DNA from: an uncultured virus (IMG/VR IMGVR_UViG_3300001533_001549)
Taxonomy: Duplodnaviria; Heunggongvirae; Uroviricota; Caudoviricetes
Direction: 5' to 3' (one strand)
IMG/VR virus record: IMGVR_UViG_3300001533_001549
DNA length: 20,000 bases
In this document: in pieces, positions 3,601 through 12,105 of the stretch
Layout of the letters: every line of letters begins with the position of its first letter
How positions within the stretch are numbered: the stretch's first letter is position 1
Notes under the pieces: model-generated
Told to the model about the DNA's origin: nothing
The model's input: only the letters and a program-made list of their open reading frames with translations
The model's database searches: none
Made by a program: the position numbers and the translations under genes

Positions 3601-5469
3601 TTGAAGCCGAGAAGCATTCTGGACAACGATGATGACGATGATGTGACATCAATCGTCGAAGAGTCATTGCTTTTGCCGGGCGTTCCCAAGGAGACGCTTG
3701 TTTCCGCGCCGCCCGCCAAGCTTGACACTTCGACGATTTCTGTTTGCCCCAGGTGCGGTAAGCCTCTTGTCGCACCAACCGCGGTCGGAGGTGCTCCGAG
3801 TGTGTCGTGGTTGGAGTGTCCCGCATGCGGCGCTCTCGTGAACACGTACAAGCCCACGATATACCAGGCGGTTTTTCTGAAACGCACAGAGCGTTACAAG
3901 ATGGCAGCAGGTGGTTACGGTTCCGGTAAATCCCGCGTCAATATCGAAGACGTGATAAAACATCTTCTCCTTATTCCGAATGCACGTGTCATCGTGGCCG
4001 CGAGATCGTATCCGGCGCTTGACGCGACGTTCGTCAAAGAGTTTTACTCGATGCTTCCGGACAAGCTGGTCCGCAGGAAGAACGACCAGAAGCACGAGCT
4101 GACATTGACCAACGGGAGCGAGCTCCTCTTCAGGTCTTTCGATGACCCGACCAAACTCAAATCGATCAATGCCACAATGATCGTGATCATCGAAGCTTCC
4201 GATGTCCCTCATGAGGGTTTCAGGATGATGCAGTCGCGTCTCCGTAACACGGCGGCGATGCTGCCCGAGTTCGACAAGAACGGACAACCGGTCTATGTCT
4301 GGAACGACAAAAGCAAATCCTTCCGTCCCAAGTACCGTGTGGACGTGAGGCATATCAACCTTGAGACCAATCCGGATTCCGGGTGGGTCAAAAAGGATTT
4401 TCTGTTGGATTCGAAGACGGTCGAGTTCTATGGTGACGCCTTTGATGAAGGCTACGTGTACAACAAGACCCCTGATCCCAACAAGTATACCCAGGTCGTG
4501 TCCACGGAAGCGAACACGCACCTTCCGGAAGGCTATGTCGAAGAACAGACCCGTGACAAAAGTCCGGCGTATATCGCGCAGTTCTTCAAGAGCAGCTTCA
4601 ATTTCTCCACAAACCTGGTGCTTCCCAACGCGGGCATGTGTGTTGTTCCTCCGCATAAGCTTCCGAGAACCTATAACGACATAGGTCAACGGGTGTTGTG
4701 GTTCGCCATAGGAGTCGACTATGGTGTGAACGATCCGACCCATGTCGTCTTCACGGCGTTCTCGACAGAGACACGCAAACTGTATGTCTTTGCCGAGTAC
4801 CGTACGAACAACACTGACGTCAAAGACATATGCAAAGCGTACCGTCACGAGCTGCGTGTCAACGGAACGGATCTTGACGGGCTGTTCATGTTGCCAAGGT
4901 TCGATGGTCGCAGTTACAACAAACGCGAAAGTGACCTTGCCACAATCGGTTCGACCTTCGAGGACGAAGGACTGTTCTTCGATCCGGCGTTCGAAGGCAT
5001 GGAGACACGTATCATCAAGTTGAACTCCCTGTTCAACCATGAACAGATCGAGATCTTCTCCACATGTGAGTTTCTGGTGGACGAACTCTTGAACTGGAAG
5101 TTCAAACTTGACAAGCAGGGCAATGCCACAAACAAACCTGTGGACAAGAACGACCACGGCATCCAGGCACTGGCGTTTGTGGTTGTGGCCTTGCCTCACA
5201 ATCTGATGGAATTCCGATTAAGCGCGTTCCTTCCACCGGGCACACGTGTCGATCATGACAAACGGTTTGTTAAAAAGGCGCCTGCGCCCATGTACAATCC
5301 ATTATCCAAGGAGGATAGTAGAAATGACAGAGCTTTTGATGATTTTGATAGTCGTATTGTTGCTCCTGTTGGTCATCATGATATCCGGGCTTACAGTGTT
5401 TATGATGAAGAACCTTCAGATGAAGAGTCTCATGCAACCCTCAAAGCCTATATCCCAGGAGGTCATTGA
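3601..5469 (+). CDS. terL: Terminase large subunit with N-terminal Zn-ribbon
   Basis: Walker A GGYGSGKS (3910-3933), LTNGSELLFRSFDD, Walker B-like MIVIIEASD, coupling motif LETNP, RNase H-like IGVDYGVNDPT and PVDKNDHG; TTG start with GGAG upstream. Confidence 0.92.
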   Translation: MKPRSILDNDDDDDVTSIVEESLLLPGVPKETLVSAPPAKLDTSTISVCPRCGKPLVAPTAVGGAPSVSWLECPACGALVNTYKPTIYQAVFLKRTERYKMAAGGYGSGKSRVNIEDVIKHLLLIPNARVIVAARSYPALDATFVKEFYSMLPDKLVRRKNDQKHELTLTNGSELLFRSFDDPTKLKSINATMIVIIEASDVPHEGFRMMQSRLRNTAAMLPEFDKNGQPVYVWNDKSKSFRPKYRVDVRHINLETNPDSGWVKKDFLLDSKTVEFYGDAFDEGYVYNKTPDPNKYTQVVSTEANTHLPEGYVEEQTRDKSPAYIAQFFKSSFNFSTNLVLPNAGMCVVPPHKLPRTYNDIGQRVLWFAIGVDYGVNDPTHVVFTAFSTETRKLYVFAEYRTNNTDVKDICKAYRHELRVNGTDLDGLFMLPRFDGRSYNKRESDLATIGSTFEDEGLFFDPAFEGMETRIIKLNSLFNHEQIEIFSTCEFLVDELLNWKFKLDKQGNATNKPVDKNDHGIQALAFVVVALPHNLMEFRLSAFLPPGTRVDHDKRFVKKAPAPMYNPLSKEDSRNDRAFDDFDSRIVAPVGHHDIRAYSVYDEEPSDEESHATLKAYIPGGH

Positions 5470-5710
5470 CGAAAATGACAGGCCTCCGTTAGCTCCCAGC
5501 AGCAATCTCATGGGCGACGACCCTGATGCTGAGGACACGGAGTTGGCGAACCAGGTCGATGAAAACGCGATGAGACGCAAGCAGGAAGAGCGACGACAGC
5601 TTGAAGAGGCCATGCGTGCCAGCATGGACAAGTATAACGAAGCGCTCAACGCCACGCTCGACGAGATCAGACTGGGCAAGCCCGCACACAGACGTACAGA
5701 TGACAGGTGA
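5324..5710 (+). CDS. Single-pass membrane protein with acidic/coiled-coil tail, overlapping the terL 3' end
   Basis: AAGGAGG at 5308-5314, ATG at 5324, hydrophobic LLMILIVVLLLLLVIMISGLTVFMM; its stop overlaps the portal start. Confidence 0.75.
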   Translation: MTELLMILIVVLLLLLVIMISGLTVFMMKNLQMKSLMQPSKPISQEVIDENDRPPLAPSSNLMGDDPDAEDTELANQVDENAMRRKQEERRQLEEAMRASMDKYNEALNATLDEIRLGKPAHRRTDDR

Positions 5711-7452
5711 TGACAATGGCGCAGAACACACACAAAGCCCCGGATCTGATGCAGAAGTTCCGGGAGTATCAAAGCTACAAGCAGAACATTCTTTCCGAAT
5801 GGCGTCTGTTGCGGTCACTCTATAGGGGTGAATTCTGGCTTGTTTTCAAAAAGTATCTGAAGGAGTACACAGTCACACCTGACTGGAACTACTTCGAATA
5901 TGTTGTCCAAGGTTTTTTGAACTCCATTTACAGCGGCGCGTTCATCGGCACTGTCACACCACGCCGCACCGAAGACGAGAAAGCTGTGCAAGCCCTGAAC
6001 AGTTTCATCGCGTACAACTGGAACAAATGGGGCATGAAAAACAAGTTCCTTCACATCGGTGAGAAAGGCGAGCTTTATAACATCGGCGCGCTTCGTGTCG
6101 ACTGGGACGCTGAGAAAGGGCACACAAAACTTCAGACTTTGGCGCCGCATGAGATCTATCTCGATCCAAGTGTTTCCGACTACCGCGAAGGCGAAGCGAT
6201 CTTCATCGAACGTGCGGTGCACATCGATACCCTGAAGAAGAATCCTGATTTCAAAAAAGCTGTCGAAGAGTTCATCAAGAAAAATTCGGGACGCGTTGTC
6301 GACAAGACTGTGACGAACCGCATCGCCGGATTCGAGAACAGCCAGGGTTCGCAGAACAAACTTGTGTCTCTGATCGAATGCTTCATACGCAATGACAAAG
6401 GCGGTATCGACCAGGTGTTCATTCTGGACGAGACCGAACTCATTTTCGAAAAGGTGGGCATCCCTTTGTCAACGTTCCCTGTGGTCATCTATTCCCCGCA
6501 GCTTCCTGACGGAGGGCCCTATGGAAACTCCAAGCTGACAAAGATCCTGAACACCGTCATCGCATTGAACCTTCTGGACAGCATGGAAGCCACACAGCCT
6601 TACCGTCTTCTGAACCGTGTGCGCTTTGTCAATGTCGACGGACGTATCAACATGAGATCGTTCGCTGATCACGGCAACACACCAGGGGCTTCATTTGAAG
6701 TCAAAGGTGACCCGCGTACACTGGTGCATTATCAGGACATTCCTGTGGTTCCTGACATGGGTAATCTGAAACGCCGTCTGGAAGATTCAATATTCCAGGT
6801 CACAGGTGTCGATCCCCAGTACAAGGGCCGTATGACGAACTCGCTCCAGACGACAGGTGCGACCCAGGCTTTCCAGGCGCGCGTCTCAATGCTCACGGAC
6901 AATTCGCGTATCACGCAACTTGAGGAGTTCTGCGAGAACGTCACCCGTCTTCAGCTCGAGTTTTACTTCGAATATGCCGGAGACAGGGTTTACGATATTC
7001 CGAAACTTTCCGCCACGGGTACCAAGAAAGTCGTCGATCGCACTGAGTTGGACTTCAGTCGCATAGGTCTTGGCAAGAATGACTTTGACTATATGATAAC
7101 AGCCTCGACACTTCTTCCGATGAACCAGGCCAACCTCTTCGAAAGCGCGAAAGCCCTTTACGAGATGCAGGGACAGTACGGTTTCAAGAAGGCTGTCATC
7201 ACCGAACAGGACCTTGTCCGCTGGTCAGACTTCCCTCAAAAGGACCTTATCCTTCAAAGGCTCGAAAAAGAGGACCAGGAAAGCGTTGCCGAAAACCTTG
7301 TGGCGGATCTTACGAACTTTGCGTCCATCTTCTCAAGGATGCTTGCGCAAGGAATGTCGGAAGAGGAAGCAGCTCAGCAAGCGATCTCAATTCTCATCGA
7401 AGAAAAGAACGCGATGCAGCAGAATCCTTCCATTGGTCAAGGCTTCAATTGA
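5707..7452 (+). CDS. Portal protein (P22/podovirus-like); start may be ATG 5716
   Basis: 581 aa after terL; FYRGE-W-like start (LYRGEFW), EIYLDP, FPVVIY...PYG, IFQVTGV..QYKG, TTGATQ segments characteristic of P22-type portals. Confidence 0.85.
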   Translation: MMTMAQNTHKAPDLMQKFREYQSYKQNILSEWRLLRSLYRGEFWLVFKKYLKEYTVTPDWNYFEYVVQGFLNSIYSGAFIGTVTPRRTEDEKAVQALNSFIAYNWNKWGMKNKFLHIGEKGELYNIGALRVDWDAEKGHTKLQTLAPHEIYLDPSVSDYREGEAIFIERAVHIDTLKKNPDFKKAVEEFIKKNSGRVVDKTVTNRIAGFENSQGSQNKLVSLIECFIRNDKGGIDQVFILDETELIFEKVGIPLSTFPVVIYSPQLPDGGPYGNSKLTKILNTVIALNLLDSMEATQPYRLLNRVRFVNVDGRINMRSFADHGNTPGASFEVKGDPRTLVHYQDIPVVPDMGNLKRRLEDSIFQVTGVDPQYKGRMTNSLQTTGATQAFQARVSMLTDNSRITQLEEFCENVTRLQLEFYFEYAGDRVYDIPKLSATGTKKVVDRTELDFSRIGLGKNDFDYMITASTLLPMNQANLFESAKALYEMQGQYGFKKAVITEQDLVRWSDFPQKDLILQRLEKEDQESVAENLVADLTNFASIFSRMLAQGMSEEEAAQQAISILIEEKNAMQQNPSIGQGFN

Positions 7453-7461
7453 CGCACAAGG

Positions 7462-7491
7462 AACACAGACTGTTTACAGTCTGTGTTTTTT
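7462..7491 (+). terminator. Inverted repeat plus T tract after the portal (intrinsic terminator and/or operator)
   Basis: AACACAGACTGT (7462-7473) tt ACAGTCTGTGTT (7476-7487), a perfect 12-bp inverted repeat, followed by TTTT. Confidence 0.75.
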
Positions 7492-7501
7492 ATGTTATAA
7501 T
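7473..7501 (+). promoter_or_regulatory. Near-consensus sigma70/sigA promoter
   Basis: TTTACA (7473-7478), 17-nt spacer, TATAAT (7496-7501) with extended TG at 7493-7494. Confidence 0.75.
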
Positions 7502-8052: not shown

Positions 8053-8198
8053 GACGTATGTCTTACGTGCCTGCGACTTCGTCTGACAATTTCACGCAGG
8101 ATGATTTGGAAGCGCGCTATCCTGAACGTCGCTGTGACAGATGCGACCGATGCGATCGCGGAGATGCTATGGAACCTGATACGGAGGAAGAGCAATGA
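8001..8198 (+). CDS. Small protein with Arg-rich N-terminus and (CDR)3 repeat
   Basis: AAAGGAGAGG RBS before the ATG; ATGA coupling with the next gene; fills otherwise empty 8053-8194. Confidence 0.55.
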   Translation: MRLREFIKARRERRRRIRRMSYVPATSSDNFTQDDLEARYPERRCDRCDRCDRGDAMEPDTEEEQ

Positions 8199-8479
8199 CA
8201 TTCGGACAAGCTTTGATGGAAGTGAAACAGGGTGAGAAAATCGCGAGAGTCGGTTGGAACGGCAAGAACATGTGGGTCGCCATGACACCTGGTAAAGTTC
8301 TTGATCTGGAGAAAAATGACATCTGGCCGAAGAACATCAAGGATGTCGCGGTCGCCAATGGTGGAACCGTTGAGATTCTGCCCTATCTCACAATGAAGAC
8401 TGTTGACAACAAGATTGTGATGGGTTGGCTTGCTTCACAGACCGACATGTTGGCCAACGACTGGTTCATAGTAGAGTGA
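8195..8479 (+). CDS. tad2: DUF2829 / Tad2-family protein (Thoeris anti-defence 2-like nucleotide sponge)
   Basis: MTFGQAL..VKQGEKIARVGWNGKNMWV ... PYLTMKT..NKIVMGWLASQTDMLANDW is the hallmark DUF2829 sequence; GGAGG RBS. Confidence 0.88.
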   Translation: MTFGQALMEVKQGEKIARVGWNGKNMWVAMTPGKVLDLEKNDIWPKNIKDVAVANGGTVEILPYLTMKTVDNKIVMGWLASQTDMLANDWFIVE

Positions 8480-8480
8480 C

Positions 8481-9062
8481 GTGCGGTATCTCAAAAGGAT
8501 AATCAGAAAAGCCACAAAGCCCATCAGAAACAACATCAAGGGTTTTGTCGGCGAAAGTGCTGTTGCGAAAAAACTTTCCGGTTTCCGATACTCCGTTCAT
8601 GACTTGCTTTTCAATGACGGCATCAAGAGCGTCCAGATCGATCATATCGTTATCACAAGAAGCGGAATCCACGTCATCGAAACCAAGAACTACGGAGGAA
8701 AGATCTACGGCAAGCCGGACTCGAAGACTTGGTATCAGTATGTTGGAACAAAAAAATCCGAGTTCATGAATCCTGTCCGACAAAACCAAGGACATATCTG
8801 GGCTCTTCAAAGAGTCTTGGGGAACAGGAATGACGATCTGTTCCATTCGTATGTCGTTTTCACGGACAAAGCTACAATAGCGACAGAGCTTCCGATTGTG
8901 GCATTGTCGGAAATCAAAGGAAAAATCGAAGAGCGATCGCCATTCTTGAGCGAAGACCAAGTCGAAGGCCTTTACAAAAAGATTATGACAATCAAAAAGA
9001 ACAACACCATAACAAAACGACAGCACATCAAGAGTGTGCAAAAAAGAATGAAGAATGTCTGA
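8481..9062 (+). CDS. NERD domain nuclease-related protein
   Basis: KGFVGE..V, HDL, QIDHIVITRSGIHVIETKNYGGKIYG, W.Q, NPVRQNQGHI are classic NERD motifs. GTG start has a weak RBS. Confidence 0.9.
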   Translation: MRYLKRIIRKATKPIRNNIKGFVGESAVAKKLSGFRYSVHDLLFNDGIKSVQIDHIVITRSGIHVIETKNYGGKIYGKPDSKTWYQYVGTKKSEFMNPVRQNQGHIWALQRVLGNRNDDLFHSYVVFTDKATIATELPIVALSEIKGKIEERSPFLSEDQVEGLYKKIMTIKKNNTITKRQHIKSVQKRMKNV

Positions 9063-9228
9063 TTGGTACAGGGGACGATATCGCCCTCCGAAAAGAAGCG
9101 GCGGAGACACCGAAGGAATCCTCGGGGTTCTGGTCTACGGAACAATGATCATGATTGTTATCTACGCTTTGCCAGTGATTCTTATTGTTCTTTTAATCAA
9201 GTGGATTGTGGACTCAACAAGAAAATAA
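9055..9228 (+). CDS. 57-aa membrane protein missed by the ORF track (MSDWYRGRYRPPKRSGGDTEGILGVLVYGTMIMIVIYALPVILIVLLIKWIVDSTRK)
   Basis: Manual translation from ATG 9055 (overlapping the NERD stop) to TAA 9226-9228; long hydrophobic segment flanked by basic residues. Confidence 0.65.
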   Translation: MSDWYRGRYRPPKRSGGDTEGILGVLVYGTMIMIVIYALPVILIVLLIKWIVDSTRK

Positions 9229-9232
9229 ATAA

Positions 9233-9350
9233 CCTGGCGTCGCTGTCCGGCATCTTCTAAACACCACGAGCCAAACCGGTCAAGCCGACCGCGGGGTGCG
9301 TTCCATATATTGAATACACAGCCAATTGGGCAAAGGGTTGTGGCGCCAGG
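9233..9350 (+). ncRNA. Candidate structured RNA of unknown family
   Basis: Largest non-coding stretch in the window. Nested helices: 9233-9243/9340-9350, 9244-9250/9326-9332, 9250-9256/9293-9299, 9277-9281/9287-9291, with many G-U pairs that work only on the + strand. Confidence 0.5.
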
Positions 9351-9368
9351 GTACAAGGAGGAAATACC

Positions 9369-9587
9369 ATGCGTTTCGTATATTTGAAGGAAGTATCGTT
9401 TGACTTGGCACATCTTGTGGCGTTTAGCGCGACGAGCATTCCGGAGACGATGAGAACTCCGGAGTACCCGACACTCACATTGTGGCTGCATGGGTTCACC
9501 CAACCTGTCGTAGCTGTCTATGAAACGGAAGAAGAGCGTATGGAAGCGATCAATTTTATCAAAGAGTCTCTTGAGTCCATAGAATAG
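9369..9587 (+). CDS. Hypothetical protein, 72 aa
   Basis: AAGGAGG at 9355-9361; clean ORF ending just before the next RBS. Confidence 0.75.
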   Translation: MRFVYLKEVSFDLAHLVAFSATSIPETMRTPEYPTLTLWLHGFTQPVVAVYETEEERMEAINFIKESLESIE

Positions 9588-9598
9588 GAGGTGGCTGT

Positions 9599-10777
9599 AT
9601 GACTGATAGCAACCTGGACAAGAAGCTAGGCAAGATCAGAAGTATTGTCACAGACAAACGCAAACGGAGTTCATTGTTCTTACTCCTCACATTTGTTGCC
9701 ATTCTCATGTTGAACGGGCTTCTTCCTGTCATTGAAGGTTCCGCGCATTATACTGTGGAACCTGTAGAAATGTCTTATGGCGAATACAAAGCACTCAAAG
9801 CCGAGGATACAAGGTACCAGTTGACGTTTTTATCAGAAGGTCTGATCGAGGTTTACACGCTGCGCTATGAGATCAGTCATCCTGAAGTTTCTTCGGAGGA
9901 TATGATCCTGGTCGAACCTCCCGATAATTTCCCAGTCAAAGCGTACACAAAATTCTTTTTTGCACACACCTTCTGGTACATCTCAACTGCGATATCGTTA
10001 GGATCTTCGATACTTCTCTTCTATAGTCTGTTCAACTACATGCTGATCAGATCCAAGGAAAGCAACGACGATTACAAGGAACTTGACAACAAGGTCAATG
10101 AATTCATTGACAGGTCTGTGGATCCCAATACGTTCGAGCCGTGGATGGACGAAGCCTTCAACAAACGACGTAAGATTCTGCAACATGAAAGCAATGTCAA
10201 ATACGAAATATCGAAACTTGACAAGTCTGTTGATTTCCGTATTAAACAGAAGCTGAAGAAGTACTTCGAGCATGATTGTGACAAATCTTTCGCTCCTACG
10301 GATCTGACAAAACAGGAACAGAAATATATGCGACGTAAAGAAGCTTTGCTTGCGCAACTTGATCCAGTCTATATCGAACAGTACGTCGTGGAAGCGAACA
10401 TCAAAAATTTCAAGTACATTCATCCGATGTTTGTTTATAATGGAACAAACAAAGAAGGAAGAACAACCGACGGGTATTCGCTCATCAAGACTGACGCGGA
10501 ACGTATCGGTGGAGACGCTGGAAGAAAAGTGGCCTTGTTGATTTCGTTTACGTTATTGTTTGCTGTGCTGTTCACGATGACCGCTGTGGCGTCCATCGGT
10601 AAGGATCCGTTTTGGATTATGGTGAATGTCCTCGCAAAAATCACTCCGTTGGTTATGCAGATTCCGTTTGCAATAGACTATACTGAAAACTTCATGTCGA
10701 CTCAGATCATGACCAATCTTATCAGTCGGCGTAACATCGCGTTATTGTACCTTGGTAAACAAAAGGAGATGGTATGA
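9599..10777 (+). CDS. Multi-pass membrane protein (about 4 TM, large central soluble domain)
   Basis: AGGAGG RBS; hydrophobic segments SLFLLLTFVAILMLNGLL, FWYISTAISLGSSILLFYSLF, VALLISFTLLFAVLFTMTAVA, FWIMVNVLAKITPLVM. Confidence 0.8.
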   Translation: MTDSNLDKKLGKIRSIVTDKRKRSSLFLLLTFVAILMLNGLLPVIEGSAHYTVEPVEMSYGEYKALKAEDTRYQLTFLSEGLIEVYTLRYEISHPEVSSEDMILVEPPDNFPVKAYTKFFFAHTFWYISTAISLGSSILLFYSLFNYMLIRSKESNDDYKELDNKVNEFIDRSVDPNTFEPWMDEAFNKRRKILQHESNVKYEISKLDKSVDFRIKQKLKKYFEHDCDKSFAPTDLTKQEQKYMRRKEALLAQLDPVYIEQYVVEANIKNFKYIHPMFVYNGTNKEGRTTDGYSLIKTDAERIGGDAGRKVALLISFTLLFAVLFTMTAVASIGKDPFWIMVNVLAKITPLVMQIPFAIDYTENFMSTQIMTNLISRRNIALLYLGKQKEMV

Positions 10778-11127
10778 TGCCCAAAAGAATATCAGCAGAT
10801 ATCGATATAGCAATCCTCACTGATATCGGACTCGGGTTGCCTTATAAAGATATTGCGGTCAAGCACAATGTATCCGCATCATATGTGTCCAAAGTAGCCA
10901 ATGGCAAAAAAGTTCCTGACATCCATGTTCCGGAGCCGAGCAAGACTCTTGATGACGACATTGAAACATTCACGGACGATATCGAGGCTGTGTCAGAACT
11001 GCTAGGACGCAGAAAAGTTGTAGCGGACAAGAAGTCCGTAGAAGAGTATTTGAAAACGCAATTGTATAGAACAATTGTGCGTGCGAAGATCTATGTCGAG
11101 CTTTTGAAAAAATATAAAGGAGATTGA
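10774..11127 (+). CDS. Helix-turn-helix DNA-binding protein
   Basis: GLPYKDIAVKHNVSASYVSKVANG is an HTH signature; AAGGAG RBS. Confidence 0.78.
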   Translation: MMPKRISADIDIAILTDIGLGLPYKDIAVKHNVSASYVSKVANGKKVPDIHVPEPSKTLDDDIETFTDDIEAVSELLGRRKVVADKKSVEEYLKTQLYRTIVRAKIYVELLKKYKGD

Positions 11128-11129
11128 TT

Positions 11130-11999
11130 ATGCCTGAAAAAGATATGACTCTCGATCAAATGCTGACCCAAGCTGCAGGCGGCACCGCTGCGACAACCGC
11201 GGAAGACGAAACAATCGAAGGCGATGGAGCGACCCAAGCCGATGAAACGCTTGAGGAAGACGTGAATACCGGAAGTGACGAGACAACCGAAGAAGATGAA
11301 ACCTCTGATGACGATGAAGCCGCCGAGGACGAAAATCCTAAAAAGAAACCTGATAAGAAAAAGCCTAACCCGATGAAGGAAGTACGCGATCGATACAACA
11401 CTGAAAAACAAATGCGGGAGAAAATCGACACGCTGATCAACAAGTTCACAACAGGTGATTACAGTTTCAAGTTGAAAGATTTCTCGGTCGACGGCAAGCT
11501 GGACTATGAAGGTCTCGAAGCTGCGATGTCCGAAGCTGATAACAAAGTCAAAGCGGAAGCCAGAGGCGTGTCTCCGGAAGTACAGGCGGAGATTGATCGT
11601 ATCGAAAGAGAGAAGCTTGAACTCGAACGTGAAAAGTTGCGCGTGTCGATGGACAGGGCTTTGACAGACTTGCAGTTGGAACGAAGTATCAAAAGCGCGG
11701 AAATCAACAAGTTCTTCAAAGATTCGATGGCTGCTGGCAAAAATCCTTACACGTGGCTGGCCCAGGGCGGAAGTCTTAACGATCTGTATGACACAATCTA
11801 TCGCGACAATCTTATCCAAAATCGGATTGATACCGCGGTAGCTGAGGCGCGCGCGAAATGGGAAGAGGACGCGAACCGCAAGAATCGCGTGCATCTGCCT
11901 AATCCCGCGAGAAGCACTCCGGATCGAAGCACAGACACAGGTGAAGGTGTTTCGATGGACAAGCTTCTTGCGGAAGCCGCCAGCAAAAGGCGCCGCTAG
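11130..11999 (+). CDS. Putative capsid scaffolding protein
   Basis: Very acidic disordered N-terminus, coiled-coil middle, P-rich linker and short basic C-terminal helix (SMDKLLAEAASKRRR), typical scaffold architecture; ATG 11130 after AAAGGAG. Confidence 0.65.
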   Translation: MPEKDMTLDQMLTQAAGGTAATTAEDETIEGDGATQADETLEEDVNTGSDETTEEDETSDDDEAAEDENPKKKPDKKKPNPMKEVRDRYNTEKQMREKIDTLINKFTTGDYSFKLKDFSVDGKLDYEGLEAAMSEADNKVKAEARGVSPEVQAEIDRIEREKLELEREKLRVSMDRALTDLQLERSIKSAEINKFFKDSMAAGKNPYTWLAQGGSLNDLYDTIYRDNLIQNRIDTAVAEARAKWEEDANRKNRVHLPNPARSTPDRSTDTGEGVSMDKLLAEAASKRRR

Positions 12000-12005
12000 T
12001 GTACC

Positions 12006-12031
12006 AACTGCCCTTTAACAGGGCGGTTTTT
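12006..12031 (+). terminator. Intrinsic terminator after the scaffold gene
   Basis: AACTGCCCT-ttaac-AGGGCGGTT stem-loop running into TTTTT. Confidence 0.8.
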
Positions 12032-12072
12032 GCTTTGAAGGTCTACTTTCTTTATAATGTCTGTGTTATAAT
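12030..12072 (+). promoter_or_regulatory. Tandem sigma70/sigA promoters
   Basis: TTGCTT (12030-12035), 17 nt, TATAAT (12053-12058); second extended -10 TGtTATAAT (12064-12072). Confidence 0.7.
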
Positions 12073-12105
12073 GAAGGCGTATATAGCGATGTGGAGGTGT
12101 GCGCA

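Follow-up and report, generated by a model that had tools for sequence, protein, structure and literature searches.

We found that the window, by which we mean the whole stretch of 20,000 nt analysed here, contains one large non-coding gap, and that an element of about 120 nt within it (9233–9350, + strand) is closed by a helix between its ends which, as a sequence feature, exceeds chance (p about 0.005–0.007). The element belongs to none of the RNA families tested. On balance it is probably a functional RNA of some kind, and our leading, tentative reading is that it may be a structured element which has been relocated and truncated and which acts in cis as a gate on the downstream ribosome-binding site (RBS).

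The window comes from the genome of a tailed phage, with tail-type genes farther along, and the related contigs are 70–82 kb in length. The features of the window to which we refer are as follows.

3601–5469, + strand: large terminase gene, Terminase_3 type, 622 aa, with nuclease-domain motifs kept in relatives
5707–7452, + strand: portal protein gene, SU10-like
7473–7501, + strand: sigma-70-like promoter (11/12, extended -10), 3' of the portal gene, with a similar site in relatives
8195–8479, + strand: Tad2-like (Thoeris anti-defence) gene in a variable insert (PF11195, E 5e-25)
8481–9062, + strand: NERD nuclease-domain gene in the variable insert
9055–9228, + strand: hydrophobic orphan ORF of 57 aa, whose homology search returned only itself
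9229–9368, + strand: non-coding gap of 140 nt between the 57-aa and 72-aa genes, a lineage-specific insert
9230–9353, no strand: TA at 9230–9231 and at 9352–9353, symmetric around the inverted repeat, seen in the sequence
9233–9243, + strand: 5' strand of the 11-bp closing helix
9244–9252, + strand: 9-nt word that recurs unchanged in the leader RNA at the related locus L014
9253–9258, + strand: UCUUCU, a possible weak anti-Shine-Dalgarno segment, which in the folding model pairs with the RBS only without the closing helix
9277–9291, + strand: 5-bp hairpin (CGGUC/GACCG) with an AAGCC loop, pair probability 0.86–0.98
9321–9334, + strand: 14-nt word with a 12/14 match in the L014 leader RNA, in the same order
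9340–9350, + strand: 3' strand of the 11-bp closing helix
9356–9361, + strand: Shine-Dalgarno AGGAGG of the 72-aa gene, shared by relatives and native to the gene
9369–9587, + strand: gene for a 72-aa protein, function unassigned, conserved in the phage family
12006–12028, + strand: intrinsic-terminator-like hairpin, 3' of a scaffold-like gene

Among the 27 gene junctions listed for the window, none is larger than the gap at 9229–9368; the next-largest, of 91 and 81 nt, both contain promoter or terminator signals. All six frames of the gap score below background on the codon usage of the window, which marks the gap as non-coding, and the statement of the initial annotation that 140 nt are left without coding in a compact window holds. 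The gap sits on an unbroken 6.8-kb contig in the DNA runs X1 and X2 (from two studies, either of which is possibly the source) and is therefore not an assembly join. Neither a promoter nor a terminator was found inside it. Since it lies between the promoter at 7473–7501 and the hairpin at 12006–12028, which are the likely start and end of the transcript carrying the element, and has no such signals of its own, the gap is probably part of a polycistronic mRNA. It includes five palindromic 6-mers, a number that is not significant (p 0.07). As separate observations on the two ends of this transcript, the promoter 3' of the portal gene overlaps a 19-nt inverted repeat (7455–7501), near-identical in L014 and L027, which may be an operator or a terminator; and at 11124–12090 a capsid gene is absent after the scaffold-like gene, likewise in relatives, with a terminator and a promoter-like site found instead.

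In the related phages, all 17 of 17 loci lack the gap before the genes of the 72-aa and 392-aa proteins, with gene order kept, so that the element belongs to the variable insert together with the Tad2-like gene, the NERD gene and the 57-aa ORF. The anti-defence island in which it had been placed is borne out by one gene, the Tad2-like one, and by nothing beyond it. The position given for the RBS was correct, as AGGAGG begins 5 nt past the closing stem; this proximity is weak evidence, because in the relatives the same RBS stands directly 3' of the upstream gene. For the 72-aa protein itself, a PH-like fold is a lead only. With the 392-aa protein as a single query no viral loci were obtained, and none with the NERD alignment; an alignment of the 392-aa protein searched against metagenomes gave 8 loci. 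Nearer homologs of the 392-aa protein are P0002, with 90% identity, and P0003–P0006, with about 57%. The NERD search of genome contigs found 55 distant loci, mostly of Bacteroidota, which are uninformative on the host, and the sole host hint is that the cluster of one NERD relative includes a member of the Acholeplasmataceae.

The closing helix (9233–9243/9340–9350) comprises 11 bp including two G-U pairs, and both mismatches within the inverted repeat are G-U on the transcribed strand. Its pair probability is 0.93–1.0 in two sequence contexts and about 0.63 in a third. The pairing of the ends that had been reported is thereby confirmed. A helix of at least 11 bp spanning at least 110 nt occurred in 10 of 2000 shuffles, and 0.7% of 1000 shuffles contained one that matched its stability of −21.2 kcal/mol; under a looser test, any helix of at least 11 bp, the count was 46 of 1000. 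In five related genomes, which are poorer in G+C, 30 of 31 gaps have a best long-range helix that is less stable than this closing helix. Moreover, folding is better on the + strand (z −2.14) than on the − strand (z −0.34), in agreement with the strand assigned earlier.

The interior behaves differently from the closing helix. With the latter fixed and the interior shuffled, 57% of shuffles fold as well as the real sequence, and the interior is thus without folding signal once the closing helix is held fixed. The initial annotation had proposed several nested inner helices and a comparison of the fold with shuffles. The complementarities that it listed do exist, but its nested fold reaches −33.8 kcal/mol against an optimum of −43.5 kcal/mol, about 10 kcal/mol above it, and the hairpin at 9277–9291 is the only inner helix common to both; likewise, the closing helix stands out from shuffles but the interior does not. 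The folding z of −2.14 was obtained with the ends chosen in that annotation, and with unbiased boundaries it becomes −1.2 (35 of 300 shuffles); z values of −2.1 or lower were found in 14 of 168 window tiles of 118 nt.

These folding results bear on an inert or decayed spacer, left in the variable island by acquired DNA or by a gene since lost and carrying a fortuitous G+C-rich inverted repeat, a reading that we regard as not very likely. It would account for the interior and for the whole-gap z, which the tiles equal in strength as counted above; inverted repeats of similar length are found in nearby coding DNA (18 pairs in 4.8 kb), no certain homolog came out of the searches run, and the frame of the 57-aa ORF stays stop-free through the gap. 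However, the helix brackets nearly all of the sole large gap, a situation seen in few shuffles, in a genome that keeps almost no spare DNA; the codon scores are negative in every frame, and both mismatches of the repeat preserve pairing as G-U on the transcribed strand. If the gap is inert after all, it cautions against taking a single strong helix in an isolated gap as proof of an RNA gene.

Then we searched for homologs. A blastn search of the element against phages and plasmids returned only short chance matches, and four DNA-pattern scans of viral contigs gave 0, 44, 49 and 49 stretches, none of them similar beyond the seed. The 21 genomes around one unrelated reference were negative for the element, and no search run, covering viral contigs, phages, plasmids and related virus records, found a certain homolog.

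Related phages carry another RNA, a leader of about 150 nt. Of 13 distinct related loci, four have it, and there it fills the interval from an extended -10 promoter to the connector gene's RBS. Its coordinates are 6409–6558 in L014, 12520–12673 in L024, 12294–12442 in L025 and 12489–12645 in L027. Both partners change in 15 of the 29 pairs of this leader RNA, a value reached in 0 of 500 shuffles and above all six slid controls, for four sequences and a structure partly drawn from these same sequences. All four members carry an anti-Shine-Dalgarno segment (−9 to −10 kcal/mol) as the 3' strand of the closing helix, and Rfam gave no match to this RNA. At the level of sequence, the existence of the leader RNA and its covariation are demonstrated in one clade of related phages.

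A collinear alignment of the element with the L014 leader extends over element positions 10–114 (z 3.9, 1 of 1000 shuffles), which by our estimate, given the 50–60 or so comparisons made, corresponds to about 0.05–0.1 with multiple testing taken into account. The similarity summed over the four leader members was equalled in 8 of 2000 shuffles, and among 44 control gap strands z stayed at or below 2.55. The leader RNA and the element have the same orientation and the same position before an RBS; in addition, each has a closing helix and allows several inner helices to be drawn. On the other side, the match to L024 is weak (z 1.9), and with L025 and L027 there is none (z 0.6). Neither the covariance model nor the profile HMM built from the four leader RNAs picked up the element in the window, and in a genome-wide search the chained match to L014, at 13, stays under the 14–19 of the shuffled null. 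Compared with the leader RNA, the element lies at another locus, has no promoter and no first inner hairpin, and is missing the words best conserved in the leaders, those of both ends with the strong anti-Shine-Dalgarno segment and those of the A-rich tract. A fold like that of the family costs 4–11 kcal/mol over the optimum. The phage of the window also falls outside the leader-carrying clade in trees of 16 rows each, which were rooted at the midpoint and comprise the loci with a full-length gene. Kinship of the element to the leader RNA family is accordingly graded by us as plausible while short of probable.

In the cis-gating reading, a lineage-specific RNA element, being a relocated and truncated relative of the leader RNA, would have been inserted just 5' of the native RBS of the 72-aa gene within a polycistronic transcript. 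As long as the closing helix is formed, the Shine-Dalgarno sequence would be open. The 5' strand of the helix might be removed by a ribosome ending the 57-aa ORF 4 nt upstream, by a protein, or by a cut; the freed UCUUCU could then pair with the Shine-Dalgarno sequence, and less translation of the downstream genes would follow. In folding models the unpaired probability of the RBS goes from about 0.6 to 0.09 on removal of the first 14 nt, a truncation picked post hoc (2.5% of 200 interior shuffles), and the strength of the UCUUCU/RBS duplex is ordinary, with 52% of shuffles as strong. Against gating, the relatives, 17 of 17, lack the element and yet express these genes. The transcription of the element, its kinship to the leader, any switching and any trigger of a switch are our inferences. 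Translational riboswitches and leader platforms offer a likeness, in that the RBS adjoins a helix whose loss, in folding models, frees an internal segment to pair with it, but the element has no Rfam aptamer, lies inside an operon and has a weak anti-Shine-Dalgarno segment.

The element was compared with known RNA families as well. The initial annotation had recognised no tRNA, riboswitch or ribozyme family and had taken a match to Rfam as an end to novelty. In agreement with it, no Rfam 15 family, riboswitches and ribozymes included, comes near its cut-off, the best matches having 14 bits and E 1.1, and ARAGORN found 0 tRNA or tmRNA on the element. Our own 5S covariance model (20 sequences, filters off) gave no + strand match at the element, and Rfam 5S was negative too. 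Several resemblances had been noted by eye, judged from features that we take to be typical of these families: the 5S-like and tRNA-like ones fail with Rfam and with the purpose-built models, and the twister-like, T-box-like, SAM-I-like and c-di-GMP-like ones are unsupported by Rfam. Among the papers listed in a literature search we found no published description of the element or of the phage family, though motif catalogues in supplements could include these RNAs.

An accessory small RNA that is excised by a host nuclease at the closing helix and acts in trans, as a decoy or mimic, is in our view unlikely. It has a precedent in a mini-tmRNA of five related virus records, an RNA of about 80 nt that consists of the tRNA-like domain only (L133 13719–13825; L151 2370–2482; L271–L273 1501–1607) and is enclosed in a 13-bp closing helix with compensatory change, spanning 107–113 nt. 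This RNA has an acceptor stem with G-U at pair 3, a short helix 2, a T arm and CCA, and no tag frame; it partially matches the Rfam tmRNA model (E 5.5e-9, under the cut-off) and is missed by ARAGORN. It may be a decoy for SmpB or for ribosome rescue. The position of the element among accessory genes, one of them anti-defence, also suits excision. But no mimic is recognisable in the element, for which 5S, mini-tmRNA, tRNA and Rfam comparisons are all negative; the covariance model of the relatives' mini-tmRNA had no match at the element and none in the window. Antisense targets of at least 11 nt are absent from the window, the longest being 10 nt, and the interior is unstructured relative to shuffles. 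The decoy idea of the initial annotation found no specific evidence.

The terminal inverted repeat raises the question of a MITE of about 120 bp inserted at a TA site, which we hold to be very unlikely. Like TA-targeting (IS630/Tc1) MITEs, the element has about 120 bp, a terminal inverted repeat and TA at both ends; the flanking TAs may be a target-site duplication or chance. Excision at them would leave a compact stop-RBS junction as in the relatives. However, the TA symmetry has a 1 in 16 chance, and the repeats are short (11–13 bp) and imperfect. No second copy was seen: in X1 and X2 there is no second contig over the element and depth is flat, and among 49 viral stretches with the same terminal words none resembles the interior.

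A self-cleaving ribozyme of an undescribed class, which would process the polycistronic mRNA ahead of the RBS, has similarly little probability. Phage intergenic positions and sporadic occurrence are typical of self-cleaving ribozymes, and the element lies between phage genes and occurs sporadically; a few of its words also recall what we take to be twister-type motifs. Against this, the Rfam ribozyme families all fail to reach E 10 on 147 nt, and the searches run gave no certain homolog.

The last proposal, a phi29-type prohead (packaging) RNA, which in the Salasmaviridae is bound to proheads as a loop-loop oligomer, we reject and give hardly any probability. It had been prompted in part by a terminase called odd, which turned out to be a conventional Terminase_3 enzyme of 622 aa with the full nuclease-domain region. 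Comparison of this terminase with solved structures by sequence gave no useful match. A CxxC zinc-finger-like segment is found at its N-terminus, and Q here, or T in most relatives, stands at what we take to be the site of the final acidic residue in the nuclease motif common among terminases. This substitution across the family could be counted in favour of a packaging RNA. So could the shared phage origin, the paired ends and the length, the active phi29 pRNA being described as 120 bases (PMC11476376). In the same source the pRNA is presented as essential and as peculiar to phi29-related phages with terminal proteins, which have a packaging ATPase of the phi29 type and replicate by protein priming. 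An essential RNA would be kept, yet 17 of 17 loci are without the element at this site; a DNA search of 10 related virus records (17–82% complete) did not find it either, and Rfam pRNA is negative. The element further differs in having no promoter of its own, in the size of the related contigs, and in the enzymes of a relative: G001 encodes DNA polymerase A (DNA_pol_A) and a primase-like Toprim protein.

Another phage RNA with some likeness is Yrl (phage Y-like RNA), described with a CGAA motif in a bulged terminal stem and with a neighbouring Ro60 gene (PMC12135203). The element shares with it a 5'-3' stem enclosing further hairpins, but CGAA is absent from its + strand and Pfam found no Ro60 among the 27 window proteins.

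If the element is functional, none of the 4227 Rfam families accommodates this phage RNA. If it is also kin to the leader, which occupies another locus, such RNA modules would change place within phage genomes and control how downstream genes are translated. A broader reading, that it is a mobile, stripped-down module of a new phage RNA class that enters 5' of RBSs and either gates the translation of virion genes or is excised, we consider rather doubtful. Were it true, the class would provide a ligand- or protein-sensing gate, or an excised small RNA, in phages of about 75 kb, probably of wall-less Bacilli, and the phage family would have at least three undescribed RNAs, the element and the mini-tmRNA among them. 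The family is in any case rich in RNA: besides the mini-tmRNA, which keeps only the tRNA-like domain, it has two conserved leaders that are likewise undescribed. The leaders and the mini-tmRNA of the relatives are better supported than the element.

The second of these leaders is a conserved structured RNA on the − strand (L135 about 560–760; L143 about 1570–1740; L147 about 11700–11870; L152 about 9810–9990). It is present in 4 of 5 related genomes, is followed by a terminator-like hairpin, has no Rfam match, and 3 of its 20 predicted pairs covary; it lies upstream of a possible capsid gene. The element has no similarity to it, and it is a better family-wide RNA candidate than the element. 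A scan of relatives at Rfam gathering thresholds, covering 8 of 20 genome pieces, gave no match.

Further features of the relatives were noted in passing. A giant ORF on the − strand, of at least 5657 aa and with no Pfam match, occupies 2594–19567 in L151 and 13924–19860 in L133; the L133 part contains the word ADNDGD, which we presume to resemble the catalytic motif of multisubunit RNA polymerases, and the ORF is possibly a virion RNA polymerase. In L021, the closest relative by the tree of the 392-aa protein, a different short structured leader lies in the scaffold-to-connector gap (about 10905–11050), and in L137 (genome G002) a long multi-hairpin non-coding stretch at 972–1338 precedes an RBS.
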